64,000 nucleotides of DNA, taken from positions 1,696,001 to 1,760,000 of the forward strand of contig CAVTNB010000001.1 in the NCBI GenBank assembly GCA_963736005.1, read 5' to 3'. Below the pieces are notes generated by a model, which was given only the letters and a program-made list of their open reading frames with translations, was not told the DNA's origin and did not search any database. Each line of letters begins with the position of its first letter. The first letter of the stretch is position 1. Positions 47,435 to 64,000 of this stretch are shown one piece after another. A program made the translations under genes and the position numbers. The stretch is from an uncultured Pseudomonadota bacterium. Lineage in GTDB: Bacteria; Vulcanimicrobiota; Vulcanimicrobiia; Eremiobacterales; Eremiobacteraceae.

Positions 47435-48721
47435 CTAGAATTTGACGCTGAAGTAGAGGTTCTGGCGATTCTCTGTCCAGTTCGACAATGGGGCAGCATC
47501 GTCAGTATATACGTTGCGGTTGAAGAACAGATTGATCGAAGAGTTGGACTTTGGGATGTTGTAGACGAGGCCACCGGCGTACGCCGTGGTGTGCTGCGTC
47601 AAGCTTTGCGTCAGCGTATTGAGGTCGACGCTCCCTGCAAGCTGTTCGGAGAAGCTCCCTTTCACGGTCAATCTCGACGTCACCGGCACCGCGACTGAGG
47701 CTGCACCAACGTATTGTTGCAGATCGGTCGAACTAGGATACAGAACGATCGGCCCAGCTGCCGTCTGCGTCATCGGTATACCGCTCGGCTGATTGAATGC
47801 GCTGGGATCGAACGCAGTACCATTGGTTTGCTGTAGTGTTTGATACAATCCGTCAAGGCTCACCGTGGCTCTCCGGTTGAGGAGCGGCAACGCCAATGTC
47901 AAACCGCCGTTGAACGAATTGTAGTTCGAAGCCGACGCGAAGGCAGGACCGAGAATCTGGTTTGCGAGCGACAACGGCTGCATGGACGTCAGCGACTGTT
48001 CGCCCAGCCGCACCTTGACGCCGAATTTCGCCAATCGCAGCGGGATGCTCAGTTGCACCGAGGAGCCTTGCAACGAGGGCGTATAGCCACCATACCAATA
48101 GGGGCCCTGCGCCGAAAGCGAGCTCACGAGGGGAAACGCCAGGAAACTCGTCGCCGCGGCGTCTGCATCTTGGCGGCCGGTGGCATTCGCTTCCGCCGCC
48201 AGCGCGCCGTTGGCTTGACCAGCAAGTCCGAAGGTGTTGCCCAGCGTCGAACCCGACCCCACTTGTGGAAAATTGTAAAAGGCGAAGACGGCCGGCCCCT
48301 GCGACGCAAACTGGGTAGATCCGGGAGCGTGCAAGTTTGGCGAAGCGTTTTCGAGACTGACCGAACTTTCCGCCCCGAAAAGTTTGAACTTGAGGCCAAG
48401 CACCGAAGCATCAACAGCGGCGAAGGACGGTTGCGCAGCGGAAGAATCGAATGGTTTGGAAATCTCACCAAAGAGCTGCGGAGCAGTCGAACTGGTTGCT
48501 AGCGGAAGGGTGAATTGCAAGCCAGAAGCCGAGCCGGAAAGGGCGTTTGCATTTTGATCGGCGCCGGGGAACACGACGACATCGCCGTGGTTGGATGTGT
48601 CGAGAATTCGGCCAATGGAAAGGCCAGCGGCGTTCGACGAATCGTCGGCGCGGGCTGCGGAAGAGAAGACAGCAACCGCCGCGGCCACGGCGACGGCACC
48701 CAACAGAATCCCCCGCTTCAA
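47435..48721 (-). CDS. Hypothetical outer-membrane beta-barrel protein
   Basis: GAGGAGGG RBS with TTG at 48721; signal peptide; amphipathic strands; C-terminal YFSVKF. Confidence 0.65.
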   Translation of the reverse strand: MKRGILLGAVAVAAAVAVFSSAARADDSSNAAGLSIGRILDTSNHGDVVVFPGADQNANALSGSASGLQFTLPLATSSTAPQLFGEISKPFDSSAAQPSFAAVDASVLGLKFKLFGAESSVSLENASPNLHAPGSTQFASQGPAVFAFYNFPQVGSGSTLGNTFGLAGQANGALAAEANATGRQDADAAATSFLAFPLVSSLSAQGPYWYGGYTPSLQGSSVQLSIPLRLAKFGVKVRLGEQSLTSMQPLSLANQILGPAFASASNYNSFNGGLTLALPLLNRRATVSLDGLYQTLQQTNGTAFDPSAFNQPSGIPMTQTAAGPIVLYPSSTDLQQYVGAASVAVPVTSRLTVKGSFSEQLAGSVDLNTLTQSLTQHTTAYAGGLVYNIPKSNSSINLFFNRNVYTDDAAPLSNWTENRQNLYFSVKF

Positions 48722-48902
48722 AGCGACCCTCCTCGAGTCATAATACTTCAACTTTGTTCGGCCGTCTGTGCGCGCCGCGACAGGTCGTGCGTCATGACTA
48801 GCCACTGACACCGCTTCACATGTTCGCCCGCTCACGCTTTCGGCGGGCCTCAGTTCCATCCCCTGCGACTTTTGGGTCCAGGCCAGTCCGCGCCCTATGA
48901 AA

Positions 48903-49310
48903 TCAGGCTTTTGGTGCTGTTTCGCGGGCCTGATAACGCTCGATGATAAGCAGCGCAGCGTAGCCGTCCAGCGGTTCTTTCGGAACGAGGAGTCCGCGTG
49001 GAACAAGCCGCCACAATCCTTTGGGCGGATGGTCTTCATAGTATCGTCGGCGCGCTTCGAGACTCGTGTTGCGTTCGTCCACGAGGGTCACCGGAAGTTG
49101 TGGCCAGCGCTCGTGAATGATTGCCATCACGAACTCTGACTTCGTCGCATTGCCGACACAGACCATACGGATGTTTCCATTTTTCACGTCATGCGCGAGG
49201 CGCGCCACAAGGCTCCCCGTCGGAACGATTTCGAGTGCCAACCTTGCGCCATCCACCGAGAGCACGGCGTAGCCGCACTTCATCAGACCCGGATCGACTC
49301 CGACGTACAT
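48903..49310 (-). CDS. YqgF/RuvX-like RNase H-fold nuclease
   Basis: GVDPG..KCG.AV, VGNAT, VDER.TS.EAR and P.D..AA motifs; downstream of DUF3084. Confidence 0.85.
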   Translation of the reverse strand: MYVGVDPGLMKCGYAVLSVDGARLALEIVPTGSLVARLAHDVKNGNIRMVCVGNATKSEFVMAIIHERWPQLPVTLVDERNTSLEARRRYYEDHPPKGLWRLVPRGLLVPKEPLDGYAALLIIERYQARETAPKA

Positions 49311-50253: not shown

Positions 50254-51336
50254 CTACACGCTCGCTGCCTGGCGCAACAGCCAGATCCCGGTGAGTGAGA
50301 AGACGACATTCGGTAGCCACGCCATGACAAGACTGGTCGAGGGGTTGGATTGCCCAATCGCGAGGCAAATGGTCGTCACGACATAGAACGCAAATACGAT
50401 CGCGATGCTGATCCCAAACCCCGCTCCGGATGACGAGCGTTGCGGTCGAATGCCGAGCGGAATAGCCAGAAGCGCAAAGACCAGGCACGCGAACGGGCGC
50501 GCGAGTTTGCTGTGGTAGGTGACGAGCAATCGCGCATACCGAGAAGCATCCTTGGCCTTGACGTCGCCTTGCAACAGGGTACGGATTTCCGCGCGACTCA
50601 TGTCCTCCGGCTGTTTGCCTTGCTCGATAAGCTGGCTTGGATCGGCACCAATGTCGATCGAAAGCTGTGGATTGTCGATTCTTTCACAACACGGGTCGAG
50701 CACGTATTCTGTCGCATCGAAAAATTTCCACGAGTTGCCGTGATACGCCCCTCGCGGGGCAAAAAGGAGCGAGAGGGGCGTGGAGCCGCGGAAGACCTCG
50801 ATCGTGGTATTCTGCAGCTCGTCTTTTTTTGGGTCGAACCCTTGCGCCATGGTGAGCTGCCGGTCGCCATTGGGGAGCGACGTGTTGACAATTTGATCCG
50901 TGAGAATCTGCGTGCCACCCGATTGAATCTCGCTGCGCAGAATCTCCTCGGCCTTCGTGGTGGCCGTCGGCACGATGATTTCCTGGAACCACAATCCGAC
51001 GAGCGAAGCAGCGAGTCCGACGGCTACCATCGGCGCAGCGATGCGGTACACGCTGATGCCGCCAGCGCGCATGGCTGTGATCTCAGAGTCTCCCGATAAC
51101 CGGCTCATAGCCAGCAACACGGCGAGCAACATCGACATCGGAAACGTCAAGACAAGCGTTGCCGGCAACGTATAGACAAAGTATTTTCCAGCGGCCAGGA
51201 GGCTAGCGTGCTCTTCGGAGACGAGACGCGCGATATTGAGGAGCTCGCCCGCCACGAACAACAAGGTGAAGGCAGCCAAGCCAAAGAGAAAAGGACCGCC
51301 AAGCGTCTGCACCATGTAGCGGTCGAGGATCTTCAC
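50254..51336 (-). CDS. lptF: LptF/LptG family LPS export permease
   Basis: MKILDRY, SEITAMRAGG.S, PLG and AWLPN motifs. Confidence 0.9.
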   Translation of the reverse strand: MKILDRYMVQTLGGPFLFGLAAFTLLFVAGELLNIARLVSEEHASLLAAGKYFVYTLPATLVLTFPMSMLLAVLLAMSRLSGDSEITAMRAGGISVYRIAAPMVAVGLAASLVGLWFQEIIVPTATTKAEEILRSEIQSGGTQILTDQIVNTSLPNGDRQLTMAQGFDPKKDELQNTTIEVFRGSTPLSLLFAPRGAYHGNSWKFFDATEYVLDPCCERIDNPQLSIDIGADPSQLIEQGKQPEDMSRAEIRTLLQGDVKAKDASRYARLLVTYHSKLARPFACLVFALLAIPLGIRPQRSSSGAGFGISIAIVFAFYVVTTICLAIGQSNPSTSLVMAWLPNVVFSLTGIWLLRQAASV

Positions 51337-52076
51337 AGGCGAAAACTTTCGCCCAAATAAAATTGCCGGGCTACCGGCGACTCGGCAACCTCGGATGCAC
51401 TCCCCGACACCTGGATCTTTCCGCGGTTGAGGATATATGCTCGGTCGACAATCGCGAGCGTCTCGCGCACTGCGTGGTCGGTGATAAGAATACCGAGGCC
51501 TTTGGAGCGCAGCAAACGGATGATTTCTTGGATGTCTGCGACCGCAATGGGATCGATGCCGGTGAATGGTTCGTCAAGCAGCAAGAAGGTCGGATCGGTT
51601 GCAAGCGCACGCGCAATCTCGACTCGACGCCGCTCGCCGCCCGAGAGCGTCTCAGACATGGCCCCCGCCAGCGAGTCGAGGCCGAACTCGGCGAGCAAGA
51701 GCGGCAGACGCCGTTCTTGTTCGTGCGACGAAACGCCCCGCTGTTCCCAAATGAGCCGCACGTTATCCGCAACCGAGAGCCGTCGAAAAACCGACGACTC
51801 CTGCGCGAGATAACCGATGCCTTCGCGCGCGCGAATGTGAATGGGTTGGTGCGTGATGTCGGTTTGCGAGCCATCAGCAGACGTGAGGAGTACCGAGCCG
51901 CCGTCCGGCCGCACCAGGCCAACCACCATGTAGAATGTCGTTGTTTTGCCGGCACCGTTGGGTCCGAGCAACCCAACGACTTCGCCAGAATTTACCTCGA
52001 GACTGACGCTGTCAACGACGGTGCGTGGCCCGTACGTTTTCGTGAGCGATCGGACATCAATCGTCCGCATTTGCAT
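51333..52076 (-). CDS. lptB: LPS export ABC ATPase
   Basis: GPNGAGKTT, LSGGERRR.EIARAL, DEPF.GIDP, ITDH.VRETL and YLGE.F motifs. Confidence 0.95.
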   Translation of the reverse strand: MQMRTIDVRSLTKTYGPRTVVDSVSLEVNSGEVVGLLGPNGAGKTTTFYMVVGLVRPDGGSVLLTSADGSQTDITHQPIHIRAREGIGYLAQESSVFRRLSVADNVRLIWEQRGVSSHEQERRLPLLLAEFGLDSLAGAMSETLSGGERRRVEIARALATDPTFLLLDEPFTGIDPIAVADIQEIIRLLRSKGLGILITDHAVRETLAIVDRAYILNRGKIQVSGSASEVAESPVARQFYLGESFRL

Positions 52077-52084
52077 CTTGTCGA

Positions 52085-52666
52085 TCAGGGCTTCGCGCCT
52101 CCGCCGGGTCCTTTTCCGAAAAGTTGTATCTGCTGTAAGTCTAAGTCGGCGATCGCGCGCGTCCCCGTTAGCCGGTAGCCGCCCGGGTCTATCGCGACGA
52201 CGTGTCCGACCGCGGTCAAAAGTCGGGTCTTCTCATCGTACGTCATGTTGTCTGAGTCGAGCGTATCGCCGGCTGTCGTGCGGGCCAGCACACCGCCCGA
52301 GAGGGCGACGTCGTGGCTGCCCTCGTCCACAATCGCTACCGGTGCGGTTACCGTTAGCCTCGGCTTGCCTCCTTTAAAGAAGTGCAAGGTGTTATCGTGG
52401 AACGTTCCTTGCTGCAAGTTGGTCGCATAGAGTACGCTTGCTGCTTCCAGCGTGTACTCTCGCTGACCATTCGTGATGTTGCTAATCGTGACGGGACGCT
52501 GCTTTGTCCCCTGCGCGCTGATCTGATAAACGGGTCCGGTTTTGACGCTCCCGGGCGACGGGGATTCCCGCGCGGACTGGTTGCTTGCGCACGCTGCACA
52601 ACACAGCGCAAGCGAGAGAGCGATCATCTGCGAGCGGACCAAAACCTCGGCTGCTCCCCTCTTCAT
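52085..52666 (-). CDS. lptC: LptC-like beta-jellyroll protein
   Basis: N-terminal hydrophobic/lipobox segment, beta-jellyroll pattern, directly upstream of lptB. Confidence 0.7.
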   Translation of the reverse strand: MKRGAAEVLVRSQMIALSLALCCAACASNQSARESPSPGSVKTGPVYQISAQGTKQRPVTISNITNGQREYTLEAASVLYATNLQQGTFHDNTLHFFKGGKPRLTVTAPVAIVDEGSHDVALSGGVLARTTAGDTLDSDNMTYDEKTRLLTAVGHVVAIDPGGYRLTGTRAIADLDLQQIQLFGKGPGGGAKP

Positions 52667-53904
52667 TGCACGCGCTCCATGCTTTTGCCAAGCGCGAGCG
52701 TTAGACCAAGCATGGGCCACGCGACAATGAGCAGGAAGGTGGTCACAACGTCGATCGCGTTCTGCGCCGCGGAGGCGACAAAGCCACAGACGAGTGCGGC
52801 GAACAACAACGTGCGCTCGCGATCGGCGGGATCGATCGACCTCTTGACCTTCGCGCACTCAGCGATCGCCACAATGGTAAACCATGTGGTTGCAGCCAAC
52901 CCGAGCACGCCATACTCGATGAGGATGTGCAGCGGCAGACTATGCGCGTGGACTTCATTGCTGGAGTATTCGGGCAGGCGAAAGTAAGGGTAGACGAGGT
53001 GAAAGCCAAAGGGCCCGACACCGGTCAATGCAAAACGCTGAGCAATGCGCAGGGCGCCAGCCCACACGGCCAGGCGCGACGCATTCTCGCTTGGGTCATG
53101 CGCGACGTCTCGGAATACCGTGGCGAGCAGCGCCAGCCCCACGACGGCGGCGACGACATATGCAAGTAACGGGCGTCGGCCGAATTTTTGTACGAAGAAA
53201 ACCAGCCCGAGCATGAGGCTCATGATGGCCGCACGCGATACGGAGAGGAGCAAGCCAAGCACTCCGGCAGCAGCAGCCCCAACGCCGATCGCACGCAGCC
53301 AGCCAGGCGACGCCACTTGTGCGAGCGCTATGGGAATCAAGAAAAGCAAATAGCCAGCGAGCTCGTTGGGCTGCAGAAACGTTCCGGACGCTCGGCCGTG
53401 CTCGTAGGCAAACATCGCAGGTGGCAGCTTCATAACGGACAGCACGCAAGCAATAAGTGCTGCGATCGCACCTGAGATGAGATAGCATGCCAGAAAGGCG
53501 TGGCGCGTGCTTTTGTCCCCAAGCACTTCGATCGACGCGACGAGGAGGACACAACCCCCAAGAGTCGTGACAAGAGAGAATATTCCCACTTTGGGTTCGA
53601 TGGCCCACGCGAGGGCGATAAGTTGCGACACGACGATCGCACATAGAGGGAGCCACAGCGCTTTGGGAAATTTGCGAACGCCGCGCAAGAAAAGAAATGC
53701 GAGCGAGACAAGCGTCGCGATCGCGGCTGCGCAGCCCAAGAAGAGGGCGAGCGTCCGGCTCGGATGCGGCGCGGTCGGCGGCAGCGTCCCTGCGAAAACG
53801 ATGAGCAAGGGCAAGAACGGACCGAGGACGGCGAAGGCGAACGGGGCGAGCGCCACCGGCCAGGCGGGAACGCTGCGAGTCGCTTGCATGATAGGCTGCT
53901 TCAC
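52663..53904 (-). CDS. O-antigen ligase family protein
   Basis: RASGTF.QPN.LAGYL, SRAA, R...W, G.G...F and HAHS motifs. Confidence 0.85.
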   Translation of the reverse strand: MKQPIMQATRSVPAWPVALAPFAFAVLGPFLPLLIVFAGTLPPTAPHPSRTLALFLGCAAAIATLVSLAFLFLRGVRKFPKALWLPLCAIVVSQLIALAWAIEPKVGIFSLVTTLGGCVLLVASIEVLGDKSTRHAFLACYLISGAIAALIACVLSVMKLPPAMFAYEHGRASGTFLQPNELAGYLLFLIPIALAQVASPGWLRAIGVGAAAAGVLGLLLSVSRAAIMSLMLGLVFFVQKFGRRPLLAYVVAAVVGLALLATVFRDVAHDPSENASRLAVWAGALRIAQRFALTGVGPFGFHLVYPYFRLPEYSSNEVHAHSLPLHILIEYGVLGLAATTWFTIVAIAECAKVKRSIDPADRERTLLFAALVCGFVASAAQNAIDVVTTFLLIVAWPMLGLTLALGKSMERVQ

Positions 53905-55085
53905 GGTCGGCTCGAAGCCACCGCTAATGCAGCGGCTGCAACCGCTGCGGCGCCTCCCGGAGCGCCCATGCGACTTCGGCCCACCTCGCCCATCAAGGTC
54001 ATCTGGCGTGGATCCTCGATGAGCCGCACGACCCCCCGTGCGAATTCATCCTTGTCGGATGGCAAGACGAGCAACGCGTCGCCGAGCAGCCGCTTCTGGC
54101 GCATCCGGTACCACAACATTTTCTTTGGGTTCTCGCCTGGCTCGAGCGCGGCTACCACCGGGCGCCCGGCACCAGCCGCTTGTTCGTTTGCGGTACCGGC
54201 TTGTCCGAGAACGATCTGCGATGCAGCCAGCACATCTCCGAAAGCGCCACGCACGAGCACCACTTCGAGCGAGCCGTGCGTCGCTTTGGCCACAATGCCT
54301 TCATCTCCGCCCGGATCGGGCATTGCGAATCCCTCCGAGCGCAACGCGGCGACCAAGGCAAGCGCGTCAACGCTCGGAGCGACTGCCATGAAGGCCTGGG
54401 TGGCCTGACCTCGCGATTGTAACAGCTCGGCGATGGCCATCAGGCGTCCCAGCATGGCAGCCGCGACGCGTGGCGCGTCTGCTCTGCTTCCCGGCAACAC
54501 CCCAAACCTCGCGGCTCGCGGGTCCGCCGCCACGTCCACCTGTCCGCTGCGAATGCCATCCATCATCGCATTGCCAGCGTATTCGGCGCGAATCCCGCTT
54601 GCCCGCAGCGAGAGCGCGGTCGGTTCGTCGCGAGCGAACGTGAGCATCGCCTTGCGCGCGATCCATCGCTCGATTGCCGAATGCGCAGAGACGTAATCCG
54701 ACTTGGCAGTCGCAACAAAGATCGTCGGGCGGCCCGCGACCAGGCTCATGGCGAGGCAGAAAACGTCACCGACCGCGATGATAACGCTGCGTTGTCGCTG
54801 GGCCCGCAGAAAACGATTCTGTCGCATCAAAAGTCTCAACAGGCCGCTGCGCAGATCCAAGATCAGATTTCGCAGATTGATGTTTGCGACGAGGCCCCCC
54901 GAAGGCATGTCTTGCTGCGGCCCTACGGGTTGCAGCCAAGCGTCGGCGCGGGCGCGGCCAACAAGCGGGAAGTGCTCGAGGAGGGTAGACGGGTCGAGGT
55001 TTCCTATGGCGCGCCCAATGTAGCCTGCAATTGCAGCTTCACCATACCCGTTGCTCACGAGCAAAATGTCGGTGCCCGTCTTCAC
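53901..55085 (-). CDS. Lipid-A-disaccharide synthase-related GT-B protein (TIGR03492-like)
   Basis: SNGYGE, PLVG, MPSGG, AVGD, TAKS, LPGSR, AGTANEQ and Q.RLLG motifs. Confidence 0.85.
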   Translation of the reverse strand: MKTGTDILLVSNGYGEAAIAGYIGRAIGNLDPSTLLEHFPLVGRARADAWLQPVGPQQDMPSGGLVANINLRNLILDLRSGLLRLLMRQNRFLRAQRQRSVIIAVGDVFCLAMSLVAGRPTIFVATAKSDYVSAHSAIERWIARKAMLTFARDEPTALSLRASGIRAEYAGNAMMDGIRSGQVDVAADPRAARFGVLPGSRADAPRVAAAMLGRLMAIAELLQSRGQATQAFMAVAPSVDALALVAALRSEGFAMPDPGGDEGIVAKATHGSLEVVLVRGAFGDVLAASQIVLGQAGTANEQAAGAGRPVVAALEPGENPKKMLWYRMRQKRLLGDALLVLPSDKDEFARGVVRLIEDPRQMTLMGEVGRSRMGAPGGAAAVAAAALAVASSRP

Positions 55086-55852
55086 GGAAGCCCGGCGCGC
55101 AAGCGCTCGCGCGCTTCTTCGGAATCGTTACGCCGGAGCGGAAGCAAGCGATACGAAAATATGCTCGAGGTGCCGTTGTCGATGTGCAGCTCCAGTCGTC
55201 CGACATGCGAAGCGTAGGCTCCAGGATGCGCGATTGGGATACCGTTGATCACCTGCGGCTGCCATAATGCTTCATGCGAGTGGCCACCAAGGATGGCGGC
55301 GAGACTGCCGAAACGCTGCGCGATCTCGCGATCCGCGGGCAACCCGAGATGGGAAAGAAGGATGGTGGGCGTGGCCTTTGCCGGTGGTTTGGCCAAAAAT
55401 TCTTCAAGAGCCGTCGTGGGACTCAAAAAGCGCCAGCCAAAAATTTTTTCCCACCCGCTACCGGTTCGATACTGCGGCACTAACAGCGCAAGAATGCGAA
55501 CCGGCACGCCGTTGCGCTCGACCGTCAGAGAACGCGCGAACGCGGGCTCGCGACTGCGCAAGTCAATAAGGTTCGAACACACAAGCGGCATCTGTAACTT
55601 GCGCGCGCGGGCGAGAAAGGCGCCATGCAGGTAGTGAAACTCACGGTTGCCGACCGCCATGGCCGCATATGGAGCTTTGGCGAGCTCGTTTGCGATCGGC
55701 TCGGCGTTGCGATAGAAAACCGACGAACCCGCGAGCGCATCGCCGCAATCCACGAGCAAGCTGCCGGGCTCGACAATCTCAGCCAGCCGCTCGCCAAAAC
55801 CTGCGGAAGCGTGGATGTCGGACGTGTGATAGATAACCAGGCGATCCGTCAC
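55082..55852 (-). CDS. Calcineurin-like metallophosphoesterase (5'-nucleotidase N-domain-like)
   Basis: HTSDIH, DCGD, GNREF, LSHLG and GGHSH motifs; GTGA overlaps with both neighbours. Confidence 0.85.
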   Translation of the reverse strand: MTDRLVIYHTSDIHASAGFGERLAEIVEPGSLLVDCGDALAGSSVFYRNAEPIANELAKAPYAAMAVGNREFHYLHGAFLARARKLQMPLVCSNLIDLRSREPAFARSLTVERNGVPVRILALLVPQYRTGSGWEKIFGWRFLSPTTALEEFLAKPPAKATPTILLSHLGLPADREIAQRFGSLAAILGGHSHEALWQPQVINGIPIAHPGAYASHVGRLELHIDNGTSSIFSYRLLPLRRNDSEEARERLRAGLP

Positions 55853-56997
55853 GAAGCCGCCCGCTCCTCGAGCTGGTCCACCACAAATCCGGCGATCTGT
55901 GCCAGCGTATCCGCCGGGCCGAGAGCGGCGCGAAGCGAGTCGTAGGCCTCCAGCTGCTCTCGCCGCAACGCCTCGCGCTCGAGCAAGGAGGTCGTAAGAT
56001 CGACAAGGTTCGGCACCGTAAAGCGCTCCTGCAGCAGTTCTGGAATGATCTCTCGCTCCATGACGAGGTTTGGTAAGGTGACCCGGTGCAGAAGGTGCGG
56101 AGGAAGCCTGCGCCCAGCTATACGCCGCTGCAGTGTTGACAGAACGTAGAAAGCAATTTGCGGAACTTTGACGAGTGCCGCCTCGAGCACGGCGGTGCCC
56201 GAGGCAACCCACGCGACATTGGCTGACTGCAAGGCTCGCACAGCGCTTGTCTGCGCGATGGTCAAGCTTCCCGGACCACCGCTACGACTCCACAGCGTCT
56301 CAATTCGGTTCGCAAGGCTCGGCGATGCTGCAACCGCGACGAAGGAAACGCCCACGATGCGGCCGAGCTCGCGCGCCGTGCGTGCTAGTGTCGGCACGTG
56401 GTGCTCTATTTCTTCGCGACGGCTCCCTGGCAAGACCGCGATCAGCGGTGCTTGCGATGAAGGCTGCGTGCTTCTGGGAGGGATCACGGAGACGAGCGGA
56501 TGTCCGAAGTACGCAACCCGCAAACCATTGCGAGCATAAAAGTCGCGTTGGTGCGCGAAAGGAGTCAGAGGCACGGTGAGCGCCGCAACCGCGCGAGCTT
56601 GCTCGAGGTTGTCAAGCCATGCCCCCGGCGGGAAATAGTAGACGATGGGTGCGCCGTAGCCTCCCTTGCGCAGCCAGCGCACGAGCGTCAGATTGACGGC
56701 GCCCGCGTCAACCGGAATGAACAAGCGCGGCGGACGCCGGCGCATGGCGGCCTCGAGCCGGCGCAAGACGATGTAGAGCATTGGAATTTTGGGCAGGATG
56801 GAAAGCGGTCCGATGCTCGCAAGCTCGGGCGACTCATAAGAAATCTTCGCGCCCGCTTGGCGCAGCCGCTCCCCCCCGATGCCTGCCAGCGTTAATCCAG
56901 GGTGAAGCTTCCGAGCTGCGCTCGCGAGCAATGAGGCTTGCAGATCGCCCGATGCTTCACCCGCAACGAAGAAGACATCGGCGGGTTCGTACTTCAA
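55849..56997 (-). CDS. lpxB: Lipid-A-disaccharide synthase
   Basis: AGEASGD, GIGG, YFGHPL, LPGSR.EE, ASGTA.LE, LPNL and PELLQ motifs. Confidence 0.9.
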   Translation of the reverse strand: MKYEPADVFFVAGEASGDLQASLLASAARKLHPGLTLAGIGGERLRQAGAKISYESPELASIGPLSILPKIPMLYIVLRRLEAAMRRRPPRLFIPVDAGAVNLTLVRWLRKGGYGAPIVYYFPPGAWLDNLEQARAVAALTVPLTPFAHQRDFYARNGLRVAYFGHPLVSVIPPRSTQPSSQAPLIAVLPGSRREEIEHHVPTLARTARELGRIVGVSFVAVAASPSLANRIETLWSRSGGPGSLTIAQTSAVRALQSANVAWVASGTAVLEAALVKVPQIAFYVLSTLQRRIAGRRLPPHLLHRVTLPNLVMEREIIPELLQERFTVPNLVDLTTSLLEREALRREQLEAYDSLRAALGPADTLAQIAGFVVDQLEERAAS

Positions 56998-57812
56998 CGC
57001 TTGAGAATGCCACGATCGGTTTGCTCTTGCAAGAATGCGAGGAGTTCGCGTCCTTCATCCGTGCGCACGATGTCGCGCAGGCGCTCGAGCGCGCTCGAGA
57101 GATTGAGGTTCGACCGATAGAGAACGCGATACGCTTCTTTGAGATCGGCGAGCGACTCTGGCGAGATATTGACGCGCTTGAGTCCTACCGTGTTCAGACC
57201 GTACACGACCGTGGGGTTGCCTTCCACGAGCACGAAGGGTGGGATATCCTTCACAACCCTGCTCATGCCGCCAATCATTGCCATCCGGCCGACGCGGACA
57301 AACTGGTGCACGCCCGTCATTCCCCCAATGTTCGCGCCGTCGCTGACCAAAACGTGACCTGCGAGCTGGGCGCCATTTGACATGACGACTCCATCGCCGA
57401 TCCGGCAATTATGCGCGATGTGGACGTACGCGAGCAGGAGATTGTTGTTGCCGATGACGGTTTCGGTCTGGGCCCCTGTTCCGCGATGGATGGTGACGTA
57501 CTCACGCAACACATTGTGGTCACCGATGCGCACGTAGGAAACTTCACCCCGATATTTCTTATCCTGCGAAGCAGCGCCGATGACCGCGAAGGGATGAATC
57601 TCATTGTCGCGGCCAATCACCGTGTGACCGTTGACGATGACGTTGGACAACAGCTTCGTTCCATCGCCGATGGAGACGTCGGGACCGACGATGCAAAACG
57701 GGCCAATTTCAACGCCCCGCCCAAGCTTCGCATCGGGATGGACGACCGCGAACGAGTGGATCGATAGCCTCGGACCAGTGGGAACCGAATTGCGCGCGGG
57801 TAGTGGTTTCAT
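56994..57812 (-). CDS. lpxA: Acyl-ACP--UDP-GlcNAc O-acyltransferase
   Basis: QDKKY.GE, REYVTIHRGT, HIAHNC, LAGHV, VHQF and GLN.VGL motifs. Confidence 0.96.
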   Translation of the reverse strand: MKPLPARNSVPTGPRLSIHSFAVVHPDAKLGRGVEIGPFCIVGPDVSIGDGTKLLSNVIVNGHTVIGRDNEIHPFAVIGAASQDKKYRGEVSYVRIGDHNVLREYVTIHRGTGAQTETVIGNNNLLLAYVHIAHNCRIGDGVVMSNGAQLAGHVLVSDGANIGGMTGVHQFVRVGRMAMIGGMSRVVKDIPPFVLVEGNPTVVYGLNTVGLKRVNISPESLADLKEAYRVLYRSNLNLSSALERLRDIVRTDEGRELLAFLQEQTDRGILKR

Positions 57813-58285
57813 TAGAGGTGCAGCACCGAGGCGTCCAGCCGGAAGAGACGCGTATCCGAAACGATGGAGAATGCGAGCTCAGCACTGCAGACCAATTGAT
57901 CGTCGACGCGTGCTTCGGCATTGAGTCGTCCATAGTTCATCCGAATCCACATCACGTTGACTTCCATTTCGAGCTTGTCGCCCGGAACGACAGGCCTCCG
58001 AAACTTTACTTTATCGACCCCGGCCAAATATGGCACTGAGGTGCTGGCGCTGCTGGGCTCGATGACGGTTGTGCCGCCGAGTTGCGCCATCGCTTCGATG
58101 ATCAACACGCCCGGCATCACCGGATTATTGGGAAAGTGCCCCGCAAAGAACCATTCGTTCACCGTCACGTTCTTATATCCCACCGCACGCTGTTGGGGAA
58201 CGAGTTCGGTGATACGGTCGATCAGCAAAAATGGGTAGCGGTGGGGCAGAATCTCCATAATGGAGCGGACGTCAACGTAAGCCAC
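57812..58285 (-). CDS. fabZ: 3-hydroxyacyl-ACP dehydratase
   Basis: LPHRYPFLLID, GHFP..PVMPGVLIIEAMAQ and FRRPVVPGD motifs. Confidence 0.96.
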   Translation of the reverse strand: MAYVDVRSIMEILPHRYPFLLIDRITELVPQQRAVGYKNVTVNEWFFAGHFPNNPVMPGVLIIEAMAQLGGTTVIEPSSASTSVPYLAGVDKVKFRRPVVPGDKLEMEVNVMWIRMNYGRLNAEARVDDQLVCSAELAFSIVSDTRLFRLDASVLHL

Positions 58286-58321: not shown

Positions 58322-59167
58322 TTAGCGCGCCCCGGCGGCCGCCGCAAGTGGGGCGCGCAACTCGCGTGCTGCCGCGACATGCAGCGCGTGACCAGATTTG
58401 AGCGCGATGACTTCGCAGCGCGGATACAGCCCGAGCAACGCAAAGTCGCCGATAAGGTCGAGCACCTTGTGCCGCACGATCTCGTCCGGAAAGCGCAGCG
58501 GCCCCATATAGTCGTCGCGATCGATGACGACGGCGTTATCAAGCGAGCCGCCCAGCGCGAGCCCTTGGGAATAGAGCGCTTCGACCTCAGCCCGAAAACC
58601 AAACGTGCGATTGGGGGCAATCTCCCGCAAGAAATACTCGGGCGTCAGCGCTCCCGTTTCGAGAAATTGATTGCCAACCGGTTCTGGAAACGCAACGAAA
58701 AAGTTAATCTTGAACCGGTCGGCAGGGATGCACACGAGCAGTTTGTCGCCATCGCGGTGCCAAAAGGGGGAGCTCAGCGTCAAGACCCGCCGCGGCACGC
58801 GCTGCTCCTGCAGGCCCGCGTCGGCGATTGCGCGCGCGAACGGAAGCGCGCTGCCATCCATGATCGGAATCTCTTCACCGTCGATGAGAATCTGGGCATT
58901 GTCGACGTCCATGCCCAAGAGCGCCGCGAGCACGTGCTCGACGGTGTTGACTTCAGCAGTCGCCGATCCAAGGGTGGTGCAGCGAACGGTCGATCGAACG
59001 GTTTCAGGCGTCGCGGCGATGCGCGATCCATCGGCCAAGACGAATGAAAAACCGGCATTCGCCGGCGCTGGAGCTATCGTGACGGTGGCTTTACAGCCGG
59101 TATGAAGACCGACGCCTGAGAGGGCGACCTCGCGGGCGAGCGTGTGTTGATATTCCACTTTCACCAA
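58322..59167 (-). CDS. lpxC: UDP-3-O-acyl-GlcNAc deacetylase
   Basis: GVGLHTG, TVEH, PIMDGS, RTFGF, HKVLDLIGD and SGH motifs. Confidence 0.96.
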   Translation of the reverse strand: MVKVEYQHTLAREVALSGVGLHTGCKATVTIAPAPANAGFSFVLADGSRIAATPETVRSTVRCTTLGSATAEVNTVEHVLAALLGMDVDNAQILIDGEEIPIMDGSALPFARAIADAGLQEQRVPRRVLTLSSPFWHRDGDKLLVCIPADRFKINFFVAFPEPVGNQFLETGALTPEYFLREIAPNRTFGFRAEVEALYSQGLALGGSLDNAVVIDRDDYMGPLRFPDEIVRHKVLDLIGDFALLGLYPRCEVIALKSGHALHVAAARELRAPLAAAAGAR

Positions 59168-59173
59168 CGGGCG

Positions 59174-60217
59174 TCACTGAGATTTGCGCGACTCTTCGAG
59201 CATCTTCATCAGCGCGCGCACTTGTTCGAACAGCTTAGGCAACTTCCGAATTAGAACCTCCTGCTCGAGGTTCTCGCGGTGCGGCTTCGCGTAGTAGCCG
59301 GAGACGTTGGAATTGGCCGGCCACGAACCGATGACTTTCGCGCCTGCACCGACGACGCTTCCGTCGCCGATCTCAATATGCCCTGTGACGCCAACTTGCC
59401 CAGCAAGCACGACTCGTTTTCCCAGCTTCGTGCTGCCTGCGATCCCACACTGCGCGCAGATTGTGCAGTCTTCGCCGATCTGGACATTGTGCGCAACTTG
59501 CACGAGGTTATCGATTTTCGTGCCGGCACCAACCGTCGTCGAACCGGTAACAGCTCGATCGATTGTCGTGCATGCGCCGATCTCAACGCGATCGCCGATC
59601 ACAACGTTGCCGATCTGCGGAACCTTGATTTGCTCCAATCCGACCCGCACGAATCCGAAGCCATCGCTTCCAACGACGCAGCTCGCGTTGAGCACGCAGC
59701 TCGTGCCAACGATGCAATCATCCAACACGACGGCATGAGGGTGAAGCAGCGTGCCTGCACCGATGCGTGCGTTCTTGCCGACGTACGAACCACTGAGCAG
59801 CAGGCAACCCCCCTCGAGGGTGGCACCCTCCCGCACGATCACGTTCGGCCCAATCCATACGCCCGCGCCACGCGTGACGCCCGACTCGACGACCGCGCTT
59901 GCATGGGTGAACTCACCACTTGGCAGCAGCGGCGCAAACGATTGCAAAACCTCTGCCAGTGCCGCTCGCACGTTTTGGACCACAATGAGCGTCTTGCCAT
60001 TGCGCTCGGCGTCCTTTGCCCCAGGCGGTGCAAGGATCGCTCGCGCGCGCGAGCGCAACGCTCGCTCGAGCCAACGCTCGTCGACCGCAAACGTCAGGGA
60101 GTCTGCATCCGCTTCGTCGACCGATGCGACACGTTGGATGGCTGCGTCCTCATCGCCGACAACCGTTCCCCGGGTCAGCGCGGCGAGCTCGCCTAGGCGC
60201 CGACTCACGCTCGTCAC
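59174..60217 (-). CDS. lpxD: UDP-3-O-acyl-glucosamine N-acyltransferase
   Basis: GSDGFGF, KVPQIG.V.IGD.VEIGA, IDR and KIDNLVQVAHNV motifs. Confidence 0.96.
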   Translation of the reverse strand: MTSVSRRLGELAALTRGTVVGDEDAAIQRVASVDEADADSLTFAVDERWLERALRSRARAILAPPGAKDAERNGKTLIVVQNVRAALAEVLQSFAPLLPSGEFTHASAVVESGVTRGAGVWIGPNVIVREGATLEGGCLLLSGSYVGKNARIGAGTLLHPHAVVLDDCIVGTSCVLNASCVVGSDGFGFVRVGLEQIKVPQIGNVVIGDRVEIGACTTIDRAVTGSTTVGAGTKIDNLVQVAHNVQIGEDCTICAQCGIAGSTKLGKRVVLAGQVGVTGHIEIGDGSVVGAGAKVIGSWPANSNVSGYYAKPHRENLEQEVLIRKLPKLFEQVRALMKMLEESRKSQ

Positions 60218-60224
60218 AAGACCG

Positions 60225-60638
60225 TTACTGACTCGGCGGGGGCGATGAGGACGTGTCGATCTTTAGCGCTTTTTCGACATCGATCGTGATATCGTCGCCT
60301 CCATAGTCAACACCGAGTTTCGTCACCACGAGTTGGTAGTGCCGGTCGCTCGCGATCTGCTTGACGGCATCGCGCACGTCGCCCGTAACTTCGTCTTGCC
60401 AGCGCTGGCTTTGTTGTTGCCATTGTTGGAACGCTCTGCGCTTCTCGGTTGGGCCAATCTTGCTCTCATTGATGGCATAATAGTTCGCTTGCAGCTGGCG
60501 CGAGTAGTTGATGAACTTCGGCCAGCGCTGTTCGATACTGCTAATGTTGACGACGGCAACCGTGGAGTGCGCCCGTGCGCAACCGCTCGCCACAAGCGCG
60601 AGCAGGAGCGTAGCGGCAAAGGTGTTGTGTATCTTCAT
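60225..60638 (-). CDS. Short Skp/OmpH-like lipoprotein
   Basis: ASGC lipobox; VAVVN and YGGDDIT..V motifs. Confidence 0.7.
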   Translation of the reverse strand: MKIHNTFAATLLLALVASGCARAHSTVAVVNISSIEQRWPKFINYSRQLQANYYAINESKIGPTEKRRAFQQWQQQSQRWQDEVTGDVRDAVKQIASDRHYQLVVTKLGVDYGGDDITIDVEKALKIDTSSSPPPSQ

Positions 60639-62023
60639 GATCCCCCCGAACCGGATGCTTGCGGTGTTGCGGTTGTGGTTTGGAGCGCGCTTAATGCCTT
60701 TGATACTTGATCCGTCACGTTGATGGCAGAACCAGCGCCGCGCACGCTGGTCAGCACGACGGCGATTCCGTCCTTGCGCGCAATGTCTTGTACCTGGGCG
60801 GTAATCTGATCGACGATCTTTTGATACAGGTCCCGCCGCTCGGCCGCGACCTTGTCAGCTTGCGCAGAAAGAGCTTCATTGTCTTGAAACTGCACATGGG
60901 CGATCGAACTGTACTTGGCGACCAAAGCGGCTCGTGTTGCCTCGTAGGCAGTCGTTGCCCGGCTGGCCTCTGCGACATAGCCGGATTGCATTTGGTCGTG
61001 GACGCTTTGTGCTTGGGCTTGATACTTCGGATTGTTTGCGAGTTTTTGATTCACAACGTTTAACTGCTGCTGGAACTTGCCGTTGAGAGCGACCAGTTGC
61101 GGCTGCATCTGCGTTTGCACGTCTTTTTGGCGCGCGACGAGTTTGGCTTGCGTAGCGTCCTGGGTTGCCTTGCGCTCTGCTTCATAGCGGGTGGAAGCTT
61201 GAGCTTGCAACTGCTTGGTGTACTGGGCGAGTTGCGCATTGTCGCGGGACTTCATTGCATCGATCTTCGCCTGCTCGTTTTGTTCGATCGTCTGCAGTTG
61301 CGCATTGTCCTGGGCTCGCTCTTTGTCGGACAGCGCGAGATCTTGCAATTTGGCCTGCAAGTTGAGCTTTTGTTCCTGATCGGCTTTCACAACGCCAACC
61401 TGATACTGCGTCTCTTGGGTTGAAAGCTGGGACGCCCGAAGCGCGAGTTTGCCTCGCACGTCGGCGGCGAGCAACTGTTGCACGTTGCGCAAATGATCGG
61501 CATCCTGCTTGAAAAGTGCGTTGCGATAGTTGTTGAGCGTCGAGAAGGCCTCTTGCTGCATGGCTTTGGCCTGCGAACCGAATTGCTGCTGCAATCCCCC
61601 CAGCACGCCACCCGTGTCGGGGTTTGCCCCAAGCGTGGTTGCCTGCAACTGGCTGATGGCTTGCGCTTCTTTTTGCTCGTAGTAGGTGCGGCGCGCCGAA
61701 AGGTCGGCCTGAAACGTTGTGGCGGCCGCCGACAGCTCATTTTGCATTTGATTGTAGGCAGCGGTTTGCTGTGCCGTCATGTCGGTGGGCTGAAGCGATG
61801 ACTCCTGTTGCAGGAGCGTAATTTGATCTTGCATCGCTTGCAGCTGTGCGTGCAGCGGATGCACCGCCACGACCGCGTCGATGTCCACGTATCCAACCGA
61901 CCCCCCGGCCTGCGGCGAGCCGAGTCCCAAGAGGCCGCCGCCGGCCCGGTGACCGCAGCTGGAAAGACCGAACGCCACTGCAACCAGCAGTGCACCCACA
62001 CGGGAAGCCGTACCCACTGTCAT
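60635..62023 (-). CDS. Long coiled-coil Skp/OmpH-like lipoprotein
   Basis: LSSC lipobox, VGYVDID...HP, about 350 aa Gln-rich helix, IA...GI.VVL...INVTD.V. Confidence 0.72.
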   Translation of the reverse strand: MTVGTASRVGALLVAVAFGLSSCGHRAGGGLLGLGSPQAGGSVGYVDIDAVVAVHPLHAQLQAMQDQITLLQQESSLQPTDMTAQQTAAYNQMQNELSAAATTFQADLSARRTYYEQKEAQAISQLQATTLGANPDTGGVLGGLQQQFGSQAKAMQQEAFSTLNNYRNALFKQDADHLRNVQQLLAADVRGKLALRASQLSTQETQYQVGVVKADQEQKLNLQAKLQDLALSDKERAQDNAQLQTIEQNEQAKIDAMKSRDNAQLAQYTKQLQAQASTRYEAERKATQDATQAKLVARQKDVQTQMQPQLVALNGKFQQQLNVVNQKLANNPKYQAQAQSVHDQMQSGYVAEASRATTAYEATRAALVAKYSSIAHVQFQDNEALSAQADKVAAERRDLYQKIVDQITAQVQDIARKDGIAVVLTSVRGAGSAINVTDQVSKALSALQTTTATPQASGSGGS

Positions 62024-62031
62024 GCTCGTTG

Positions 62032-62832
62032 TTACTGCAGCGCTTTCACGACATCTGCCGTTACGTCGGTGCCGCCATACACTCGGTTGCTCGCATCGAT
62101 GACAAGCAGCAGGTGCTTGTCCTTTGCGACGCTCGCAATCGCTGCGTTGGTCGAGTCGATCACGGGTTGCAGCACCTTTTTTTGCTCGGCGTCCAGTTGG
62201 CTGTTGAAACTCGTCGTGATCTGCGCGCGCTGGTCCGCGCTCTTGCCTCTCAGTTGCGCTTCGAGCTGCGCGGCGAGCGTCTGACGGAACGCCAAAAAGT
62301 CGTCGTTGGCTTTTTTCACCTTCGGCTGCTGATCGAGTTGCGTTTGATCGACGTAGCCCACGGCCGACGGCGGCGGCGAGTTGACGGGCGGCAGCACGGG
62401 TCCCGGCTGGTTGAGCATGGAGATCACGTCCTGGGTGATATCGAGCCCGCCATAGATGACGATCGTCTTGTCGACAACAACCGAGAGCCCGCGATTGGCT
62501 GCGACCGATGCGATGGCGGCCTGAGCGCGACCGAGCAGCGGACCAAACAGCTCGCGCTGCTTTTGCGCCGCTTGGCCGTTGAAAGTTTGATAGATCTGCT
62601 GCTGTTGCGCCGGGGTCTTGCCTTTGATGGCCGCTTGAAACTGCTGCGCCAGGCTGCGTTGATATTGCGCGAACTCTTGTTGCGCCGCGACGAACGGCCC
62701 GAGTTGGCCGAGCGCAGACTGATCGACGAAGCCGATATCGGAGATGTCCGTAGCGAGCACTTGCGGCGTAAAACACAAGAACAACGCGAGCACGATTGCC
62801 GCGACGCCGGGAGTGCGATGGAACCAAACCAT
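62032..62832 (-). CDS. skp: Tandem two-domain Skp/OmpH chaperone
   Basis: Two units: IGFVDQ...YGGLDIT and VGYVDQ...YGGTDVT; follows bamA. Confidence 0.85.
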   Translation of the reverse strand: MVWFHRTPGVAAIVLALFLCFTPQVLATDISDIGFVDQSALGQLGPFVAAQQEFAQYQRSLAQQFQAAIKGKTPAQQQQIYQTFNGQAAQKQRELFGPLLGRAQAAIASVAANRGLSVVVDKTIVIYGGLDITQDVISMLNQPGPVLPPVNSPPPSAVGYVDQTQLDQQPKVKKANDDFLAFRQTLAAQLEAQLRGKSADQRAQITTSFNSQLDAEQKKVLQPVIDSTNAAIASVAKDKHLLLVIDASNRVYGGTDVTADVVKALQ

Positions 62833-62849
62833 GTGGGTGCCTTTCCTTG

Positions 62850-64000
62850 TTAGAACGATTGTCCGATGCCGAACGATGTGTGCGATCCTTGGTTGCCGAC
62901 GGCAAAATCGATACGGATGACTTGCGGCAGCAGCGGCGTCTGGACGCGAATGCCGATGCCGAAGTCGGTCTGGAATTGGATAGGAGCATTCACGTAGGTG
63001 ACGGCCAGCGGTGCCGGAGTGAAGAACGGCGCGTGGGGACCGCCCGGTGGTATTGGGGTTGGCGCCGGTGATGGCCCCAGGACGGGGGTAATGTACGGCG
63101 CATCGCCCGAGTCGGCGAACAGGGCAATGCCGAACTTCTTGTCGCTCGTCACGGGGATCCGCAATTCGGCTTGCGCAAGCACCTCGCGATTGCCGTAGTA
63201 GATGAACTTGGTGCCGCGAAGCTGCTGATCGGAGAGACTGAACAAGTCGTTGTACGGCAACGAATTAGGTCCGCCGGACGCGAAACCATAGTTGAGGTGC
63301 AGCGCGAAGCTCGAGTGACGTCTCACCGGCCAAAAGTGCGAGTAGTCAACATCGGCCTTGCCGAAATTGTAGTCTGAGCCAAAAGCGTGCAGCGACAGCT
63401 CGTCTGAGAAGCTGGCAGTACCGCCGTGCCGCGGGTTTGTGACGTCATCGCGGTTATCTTTGAAGATAGCCGGCGTGATGCTGCGCAGCGAGGTTGAGCC
63501 AAGCTGGTTTGTCGTTCCGGTCGTGCCTTGAATATTCGCCCCTTGCAAGGCAAGGAACGCCTGCGGGAAACCGGCCGCGGTGACGTCCTGGAACAGGCGC
63601 GTCGACGTGAGCCCGATATTCAAGCGTGTCCAGTCTGCTACCGGATGACCAAAGCTAATGGAAAAACCGGCGCTGCGTGCGGTGTAATCGGCGACTTGGT
63701 TGGTACACGGGCTGCCATTAGATGGACACGGACCGCCGCTAATGGTCGTGGACGTGCTCGTGCCAAGCGACGTGTTGATCGAGGGTGCGGTGGGAGTCAG
63801 CGAATAAAACGGGTTGTTCCCTGGAATTTTGTATACCGGACGCGGCTGGTTGGTTTGCAAATTGTTGAATATGTTGAAGCTCAGCGAATCTGCTTTGAAC
63901 TTGTGAATGTACGGGATGCCGATGCCAAAATTGACGTTGCTGAAGAACTGGCCCTTTTGCAGATTGACGGACGCGCTGTTCCCCGTGCCTCCTAAATTAT
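62850..64000 (-). CDS. bamA: BamA/Omp85 outer-membrane assembly factor (5' partial)
   Basis: NLGGTGN, DNRDD..NP..G, AELR.P, FGIGIR..TP, IRIDFA; C-terminal GIGQSF. Confidence 0.9.
   Translation of the reverse strand, partial: NLGGTGNSASVNLQKGQFFSNVNFGIGIPYIHKFKADSLSFNIFNNLQTNQPRPVYKIPGNNPFYSLTPTAPSINTSLGTSTSTTISGGPCPSNGSPCTNQVADYTARSAGFSISFGHPVADWTRLNIGLTSTRLFQDVTAAGFPQAFLALQGANIQGTTGTTNQLGSTSLRSITPAIFKDNRDDVTNPRHGGTASFSDELSLHAFGSDYNFGKADVDYSHFWPVRRHSSFALHLNYGFASGGPNSLPYNDLFSLSDQQLRGTKFIYYGNREVLAQAELRIPVTSDKKFGIALFADSGDAPYITPVLGPSPAPTPIPPGGPHAPFFTPAPLAVTYVNAPIQFQTDFGIGIRVQTPLLPQVIRIDFAVGNQGSHTSFGIGQSF

Follow-up and report, generated by a model that had tools for sequence, protein, structure and literature searches.

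A single-domain UshA-type metallophosphoesterase encoded behind lpxB, a candidate enzyme for step 4 of lipid A synthesis in Eremiobacterota

Three enzymes that are unrelated, or no more than distant relatives, are now credited with the fourth step of lipid A synthesis, which provides the lipid-A-disaccharide synthase LpxB with its acceptor lipid X; the accessible part of a paper of February 2026 assigns it to LpxH, LpxI and LpxG only (PMC13018214). How is lipid X made in bacteria that encode LpxB and in which neither LpxH nor LpxI is found? The question is raised by a stretch of 64,000 nucleotides (the window; GenBank assembly GCA_963736005.1, contig CAVTNB010000001.1, positions 1,696,001 to 1,760,000) from an uncultured bacterium of the phylum Eremiobacterota. 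Here lpxD-lpxC-fabZ-lpxA, which encode the first steps of lipid A synthesis, share an operon with lpxB and with a gene for a single-domain metallophosphoesterase (MPE). Our candidate answer, to which we give a probability of roughly 0.55, is that MPE represents a fourth class of uridine diphosphate (UDP)-2,3-diacylglucosamine (UDP-DAGn) pyrophosphatase, derived, judging by its sequence, from the UshA family. The genes on which the argument turns are the following:

55082-55852, minus strand: single-domain UshA-type MPE of 256 amino acids with a GNRE motif (PF00149); candidate UDP-2,3-diacylglucosamine pyrophosphatase
55849-56997, minus strand: lpxB, lipid-A-disaccharide synthase (PF02684, 185 bits; TIGR00215, 164 bits)
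53901-55085, minus strand: TIGR03492 'lipid-A-disaccharide synthase-related protein', 394 amino acids, GT-B fold (240 bits, cut-off 219)
56994-57812, minus strand: lpxA (Pfam/NCBIfam)
57812-58285, minus strand: fabZ (Pfam/NCBIfam)
58322-59167, minus strand: lpxC (Pfam/NCBIfam)
59174-60217, minus strand: lpxD (Pfam/NCBIfam)

These genes belong to a co-directional run with the order bamA-skp-lpxD-lpxC-fabZ-lpxA-lpxB-MPE-TIGR03492-wzy-lptCB(F/G). The GTG start of MPE overlaps the TGA stop of lpxB as GTGA, and a second GTGA joins the TGA stop of MPE to the GTG start of the TIGR03492 gene. An earlier note on this DNA had described the coupling of MPE to lpxB at the end of an lpxD-lpxC-fabZ-lpxA-lpxB operon, and both the Pfam and NCBIfam matches and the sequence itself bear this out. 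A longer open reading frame (ORF) at 55082-56212 (376 amino acids) was rejected as the gene because it overlaps lpxB in another frame and because the orthologues begin at the position of the GTG at 55852.

Fold, active site and relatives of the metallophosphoesterase

The sole Pfam match of MPE is to PF00149 (33.6 bits, residues 6-194), and the Pfam scan returned neither PF06230 nor PF17930, the domains of LpxI. Its NCBIfam matches are partial and fall on the N-domains of SoxB and UshA-like proteins; the LpxH model TIGR01854 is not among them. The motifs HTSDIH, DCGD, GNREF, LSHLG and GGHSH are all found in the protein. When compared by hhalign, a profile of 36 MPE orthologues aligned with residues 31-320 of E. 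coli UshA at a probability of 99.7 (E 1.2e-26) and with E. coli LpxH at a probability of 2% (E 0.022). The AlphaFold (AF2) model (predicted local distance difference test score, pLDDT, 94.5) aligns along its length with the N-domain of UshA: the top Foldseek matches are the E. coli 5'-nucleotidase/UshA structures 1oie, 1hp1 and 1ush (E ~1e-17 to 1e-16), the best solved look-alikes including CD73 span E ~1e-17 to 1e-13 with template modelling (TM) scores of 0.67-0.77 on the query, and the top folds do not include LpxH. By profile and model, then, MPE shares ancestry with the N-domain of UshA, a 5'-nucleotidase/UDP-sugar hydrolase.

With the UshA/5'-nucleotidase family (E. coli UshA, CD73, SoxB) MPE has in common the N-terminal dimetal domain, matched by Foldseek at TM scores of 0.73-0.77, with its five metal-binding motifs, and UshA cleaves UDP-sugars to uridine monophosphate and sugar-1-phosphate, which is the bond proposed to be cut by MPE. 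Whereas the family carries a PF02872 C-domain and a signal peptide, MPE has neither, is probably cytoplasmic and is encoded in a lipid A operon. The 5_nucleotid_C domain (PF02872) was not found in MPE, which ends about 20 residues past the N-domain. No hydrophobic N-terminal stretch is apparent from the sequence, no signal-peptide predictor having been run, and since metal-ligand motif I begins at residue 9 there is no room for a signal peptide; MPE should therefore be located on the membrane side at which UDP-DAGn is synthesized.

Invariant in the 36-sequence alignment are D12, H14, D38, N69, R70, E71, H168, H191 and H193, among them the metal ligands D12, H14, D38, N69, H168, H191 and H193. 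Where the UshA family reads GNHEFD, MPE reads GNREF[H/N/S]: the position aligned to the Asp that follows GNHEF in UshA holds H, N or S in the orthologues, and the window encodes GNREFH. We take the two changed positions to be the Asp-His catalytic dyad of 5'-nucleotidases. The earlier note had read the protein as UshA-like in its motifs, with GNREF for GNHEF and without C-domain or signal peptide, a description that the single PF00149 match and the start of motif I at residue 9 confirm.

LpxH of beta- and gamma-proteobacteria (TIGR01854) belongs to the same metallophosphoesterase superfamily, has the function proposed for MPE and also carries Arg for His in motif III (GNRD in LpxH, GNRE in MPE), but there is no family-level similarity between the two; given the UshA-like scaffold of MPE, the shared Arg would therefore be convergent. 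According to the accessible parts of two papers, the His-to-Arg change is otherwise confined to LpxH among metallophosphoesterases, and the LpxH Arg forms a salt bridge with the phosphate of lipid X (PMC5016852, PMC3087551). The parallel with GNRD that had been drawn from the sequence thus coincides with the residue that, in the accessible part of one of them, sets LpxH apart (PMC5016852). An Arg at this position would suit a phosphate leaving group, which would favour a pyrophosphatase over a monoesterase.

The same residue bears on the idea that MPE is a later, lipid A-modifying phosphoesterase which, for example, acts on the disaccharide ahead of the addition of a sugar by TIGR03492 and strips it of the 1-phosphate or of a pyrophosphate. 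The lipid A 1- and 4'-phosphatases known to date are membrane enzymes of the PAP2 type that work outside the cytoplasm, and such a role for MPE would leave step 4 unfilled. The location of the gene after lpxB and before that of a glycosyltransferase would suit it, as would the phosphate-free lipopolysaccharide (LPS) reported, in the accessible part of the paper, for the four-enzyme pathway type (PMC3087551). The replacement of His, the general acid, by Arg would fit a phosphate better than an alcohol leaving group, to judge from the accessible part of the LpxH study (PMC5016852), and a later role of this kind is quite improbable.

The other enzymes assigned to step 4 are further removed from MPE. 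LpxI of alpha-proteobacteria and others (PF06230/PF17930) acts at the step proposed for MPE with an unrelated fold and chemistry, and its gene often lies between lpxA and lpxB. LpxG of Chlamydia trachomatis (CT461) is, according to the accessible part of its description, a calcineurin-like phosphoesterase taking the place of LpxH in a lineage that has neither LpxH nor LpxI, was found only by complementation, and has an N-terminal transmembrane helix and the motifs GDXXDR and GNHD (PMC4807358). By comparison with this published description alone, MPE is not of the LpxG type, having no N-terminal helix and reading CGDALAG and GNRE.

When 1.84 billion representatives were searched with a profile, 22,983 matched at E <=0.001, and the best 150 of these were examined. 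GNRE is present in every one of the 68 proteins shorter than 330 amino acids, and GNH[ED] or other variants in 80 of the 82 longer, multi-domain proteins. The two long GNRE proteins are P0323 (360 amino acids) and P0265 (650 amino acids), the latter a fusion in which an MPE and a TIGR03492 domain follow each other as their genes do. In a FastTree phylogeny of 167 domain sequences (151 candidate rows, less 6 that cover <180 profile positions, plus 22 reference orthologues), a single branch with Shimodaira-Hasegawa (SH)-like support of 100 splits 88 GNRE rows from 79 others, E. coli UshA included. On this tree the GNRE proteins are one clade, apart from the two-domain 5'-nucleotidases, and the phylogenetic comparison with UshA that the earlier note had proposed comes out in its favour. 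A search for longer homologues returned two-domain 5'-nucleotidases and SoxB only, at <=33% identity, and did not recover P0265; the closest longer relatives of MPE all carry PF02872. The nearest clusters in the Protein Atlas bear the labels Vulcanimicrobiota, Armatimonadota, Bacillota and Chloroflexota, with no cyanobacterial cluster among those shown, and are to be read as leads only.

Homologues of MPE go by the names 5'-nucleotidase or 2',3'-cyclic-nucleotide phosphodiesterase at JGI, which would accord with a nucleotidase of housekeeping function, carried along in the operon as a mere hitch-hiker. Both positions of the presumed Asp-His dyad are changed in MPE, the C-domain is absent, and the linkage described below is kept across classes, in a second phylum and in metagenome loci, all of which makes a hitch-hiker very improbable.

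Lipid A enzymes in the genome and across the phylum

In the genome from which the window derives (2.84 Mb in 6 contigs, 84% complete), the profiles of LpxH (TIGR01854) and LpxI_C (PF06230) have no match and that of LpxI_N (PF17930) noise-level matches only. The E. coli LpxH protein likewise found no match there, nor did E. coli YaeI, used as a putative stand-in for LpxG although the LpxG paper is silent on it. Four proteins of this genome match PF00149 or PF12850, namely MPE, two CpdA-like proteins and one YfcE-like protein, and MPE was the sole match in a profile search of all six-frame ORFs.

The pattern extends to the phylum, from which 151 genomes were sampled, 120 of them >=90% complete (G128 is counted, and the tallies are independent of it). 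LpxB, MPE and TIGR03492 are each present in 150 of the 151 genomes, LpxH and LpxI_C in none (0/151 each). One genome, G131, is without MPE and TIGR03492 and retains lpxB only in truncated form; another, G026, is without LpxB, and its TIGR03492 gene is cut at the start of a contig. The lack of lpxH and lpxI that had been noticed in the operon therefore holds for the genome and for the phylum sample. A second small phylum, reached via locus L019, is represented by 11 genomes of 0.9-1.9 Mb: LpxB is found in all 11, LpxH and LpxI_C in none, and a single-domain MPE in nine, in three of which it is located ~4-5 kb from lpxB.

Neither LpxK (PF02606) nor WaaA (PF04413) has a match in the genome of the window, and its lipid A pathway is therefore non-canonical. 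A precedent exists in the four-enzyme lipid A pathway with an lpxD-lpxC-fabZ-lpxA-lpxB cluster in Cyanobacteria and Dictyoglomi, whose LPS is reported to be without Kdo (3-deoxy-D-manno-octulosonate), heptose and phosphate, according to the accessible part of Opiyo et al. 2010 (PMC3087551). The genome studied here resembles that pathway type in its lpx cluster and in that LpxH, LpxK and WaaA were not found. In its accessible part the same paper names no step-4 enzyme and presents Cyanobacteria and Dictyoglomi as outer-membrane phyla without a known one (PMC3087551); MPE is the candidate put forward here for Eremiobacterota. To these phyla Eremiobacterota can be added as a phylum without LpxH and LpxI, on the basis of the 151 genomes and with LpxG not searched for directly. 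Eremiobacterota include a cultured strain, Vulcanimicrobium alpinus WC8-2, a Gram-negative bacterium in which 3-hydroxy fatty acids are abundant (PMC9758169). The accessible literature on TIGR03492, on lpxH in Eremiobacterota and on cyanobacterial LpxG, LpxI and LpxH, supplements excluded, contains no description of TIGR03492 or of the MPE enzyme.

The step-4 role is proposed for MPE because LpxB needs an acceptor and LpxH and LpxI were not found, because MPE combines the ancestry of a UDP-sugar pyrophosphatase with a complete metal site, because it appears to be cytoplasmic and co-translated with lpxB, and because it carries the LpxH-type His-to-Arg change. Starting from what is established, i.e. 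the gene, its fold, the intact metal site, the His-to-Arg change, the synteny and the presence and absence of enzymes across genomes, we infer the substrate, the products and the partnership with TIGR03492 as follows. MPE would be a cytoplasmic two-metal enzyme that stems from the N-terminal catalytic domain of the UshA family and yields lipid X as the acceptor for LpxB. A metal-bound hydroxide would attack the alpha-phosphate, as in UDP-sugar hydrolysis by UshA and in LpxH, and the invariant Arg70, in place of the catalytic His, would clamp the departing sugar-1-phosphate like Arg80 of LpxH. MPE probably acts together with the co-translated TIGR03492 GT-B enzyme, which may supply either the lipid- and UDP-binding surface that was lost with the UshA C-domain or the next step of a Kdo-free, LpxK-free pathway. 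If this is true, a fourth, UshA-derived class would close the step-4 gap for at least one phylum, and the same His-to-Arg switch would have appeared on two different scaffolds, a clear example of convergent evolution.

The TIGR03492 partner and competing roles

The linkage of MPE to lpxB, which the earlier note had proposed to check in relatives, is conserved across classes: lpxB is found directly upstream of MPE in 18 of 18 class-level loci, and 13 of 14 loci taken from other classes or families of the phylum contain MPE, 11 of these with lpxB on the locus (nine on the same strand and two, L036 and L048, on the opposite strand). TIGR03492 lies directly downstream of MPE in all 17 class-level loci that extend far enough and immediately after it in 12 of the 13 cross-class loci. 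Of 359 confirmed TIGR03492 relatives in metagenome contigs the best 80 were used, and in 65 of these loci MPE is directly upstream of TIGR03492. Twelve of the 15 loci without an adjacent MPE offer <400 bases of upstream sequence; the pair in L108 is split by the insertion of a gene on the opposite strand, and in L111 and L130 MPE is lacking beside TIGR03492. Loci L020-L028 were rejected as orthologue loci, those inspected (L020-L022) encoding secreted two-domain nucleotidases of other phyla.

The TIGR03492 protein has 50 invariant columns in 30 sequences, and its AF2 model (pLDDT 92.6) is that of a GT-B enzyme with UDP-N-acetylglucosamine (UDP-GlcNAc) 2-epimerases, MurG and GlgM as the nearest Foldseek matches. 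A complex prediction of MPE with TIGR03492 scored 0.00, which counts neither for nor against binding. As a constant partner of MPE, the protein directs attention to the later steps of Kdo-free lipid A assembly.

JGI labels a number of TIGR03492 proteins (P0160, P0173, P0180, P0184 and others) 'tetraacyldisaccharide 4'-kinase', i.e. LpxK. The label looks like an annotation transfer error, because the proteins are GT-B enzymes and the genome has no PF02606 match, and such mislabelling could mask an absence of LpxK.

Other LpxB-like and membrane proteins occur in the lpx clusters of the phylum. In one family LpxB is contained within an ORF of 805-842 amino acids (L036:5904-8348, plus strand; L048:4306-6834, minus strand; also G003, G012 and other genomes of groups g43 and g67), whose C-terminal half (402-810) shares 39% identity (E 3e-69) with a third, stand-alone LpxB-like paralogue. 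This paralogue stands after lpxB in other families (L037:6630-7793), and its relative in the genome of the window, at 27% identity, is encoded outside the window (G000:C1:1828970-1830154). In sister classes, membrane methyltransferases of the PEMT/ICMT type are encoded between lpxB and MPE (L037:7786-8367, plus strand; L041:5357-7327, minus strand), and in one case the methyltransferase and the third LpxB-like paralogue form a single protein of 656 amino acids. Their presence in lpx clusters may point to methylation of a lipid A phosphate, for which we take Leptospira LmtA to be an analogue.

MPE is bound more tightly to TIGR03492 than to lpxB, and the pair may therefore have a different task in a non-canonical pathway. 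MPE could be a UDP or UDP-sugar pyrophosphatase in the service of the glycosyltransferases, which hydrolyses UDP, the product of LpxB and TIGR03492, or a UDP-sugar, and so eases inhibition by the product or adjusts the supply of donor; lipid X would be made otherwise or not be needed. The homology to UshA speaks for such an activity, as do the GT-B enzyme of UDP-sugar type that is its constant neighbour, and in one case fused to it, and the fact that no lipid-binding element was recognised in MPE. It would, however, leave the step-4 gap unfilled in 151 genomes and the LpxH-like Arg unexplained, the nucleotide-binding C-domain of UshA is missing from MPE, and we know of no bacterial cytoplasmic UDPase of this kind; the role is unlikely.

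MPE and TIGR03492 might also form an alternative entry to a phosphate-free lipid A, processing UDP-DAGn or the disaccharide differently so that the lipid A has no 1-phosphate. Unphosphorylated 2,3-diacylglucosamine could be released with breakdown of the UDP, or a nucleotide-linked disaccharide could be cleaved. This would agree with the failure to find LpxK and WaaA in the genome of the window, with the stronger coupling of MPE to TIGR03492 than to lpxB, with the occurrence of NeuC, a hydrolysing UDP-GlcNAc 2-epimerase, among the GT-B fold matches of TIGR03492, and with the cyanobacterial LPS of the four-enzyme type that the accessible part of the Opiyo paper reports to be without phosphate and Kdo (PMC3087551). 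The scheme is nevertheless a deduction throughout, and the methyltransferases of the sister classes hint at a lipid A phosphate there. TIGR03492 moreover retains glycosyltransferase-like motifs such as PGSR and GTANEQ, comparable with motifs of LpxB, and this entry route appears rather unlikely.

To return to MPE as the lipid X-forming pyrophosphatase, several observations weigh against that assignment and limit our confidence in it. The tightest and most constant partner of MPE is TIGR03492 and not lpxB: the MPE-TIGR03492 pair lies apart from lpxB in L046 and L047 and on the other strand in L036 and L048. TIGR03492 also scores above its cut-off in the control genomes of Synechococcus elongatus and Deinococcus radiodurans, the latter of which presumably makes no lipid A, and the role of the partner may therefore not be specific to lipid A. 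In the second phylum, G156 and G158 have LpxB and only a two-domain 5'-nucleotidase, which counts against the assignment unless the assemblies are incomplete, and the genome of the window is itself merely 84% complete. The folds nearest to MPE are soluble nucleotidases, and no LpxH-type lipid-binding lid was recognised in its model, no explicit superposition on LpxH having been made. Finally, the pathway may bypass lipid X: given the phosphate-free LPS reported for cyanobacteria and the lack of LpxK and WaaA, lipid X may not be obligatory. The distinct enzyme class for step 4 that the earlier note had proposed hence stands in part. The gap, the lpxB linkage, the clade and the Arg favour it; the lack of LpxK and WaaA and the tighter bond to TIGR03492, which opens the rival roles, had both been missed.

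A more far-reaching version of the pyrophosphatase proposal, which we offer tentatively and hold to be possible if doubtful, would treat MPE and TIGR03492 as two halves of one machine that defines a Kdo- and 4'-phosphate-free lipid A branch of the 'four-enzyme' lineages. The paralogue would hold UDP-diacylglucosamine, replacing the UshA C-domain, or pass lipid X on, and the GNRE domain would cut the pyrophosphate, while TIGR03492 and the third LpxB-like family would replace the steps that depend on LpxK and WaaA.

Surroundings of the operon

On either side of the lpx genes the co-directional run continues with further envelope genes:

50254-53904, minus strand: Wzy_C/O-antigen-ligase-like gene, lptC, lptB and lptF/G (Pfam/NCBIfam), downstream and co-directional
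60635-63998, minus strand: two OmpH/Skp-like genes upstream of lpxD, preceded by the 3' part of an Omp85/BamA gene

A single gene for a permease of the LptF/LptG family follows lptB in the cluster (50254-51336, minus strand). Downstream of the lpt genes lies an ORF of 534 amino acids (47435-49039, minus strand) without a Pfam match, the product of which is rich in Ser, Ala and Gly and has a terminal F, like an outer-membrane beta-barrel. Upstream of lpxD, an ORF of 784 amino acids (60635-62989, minus strand) has a weak OmpH match in its 3' part only (60635-61900) and overlaps, in another frame, an OmpH-like ORF of 266 amino acids (62032-62832, minus strand).

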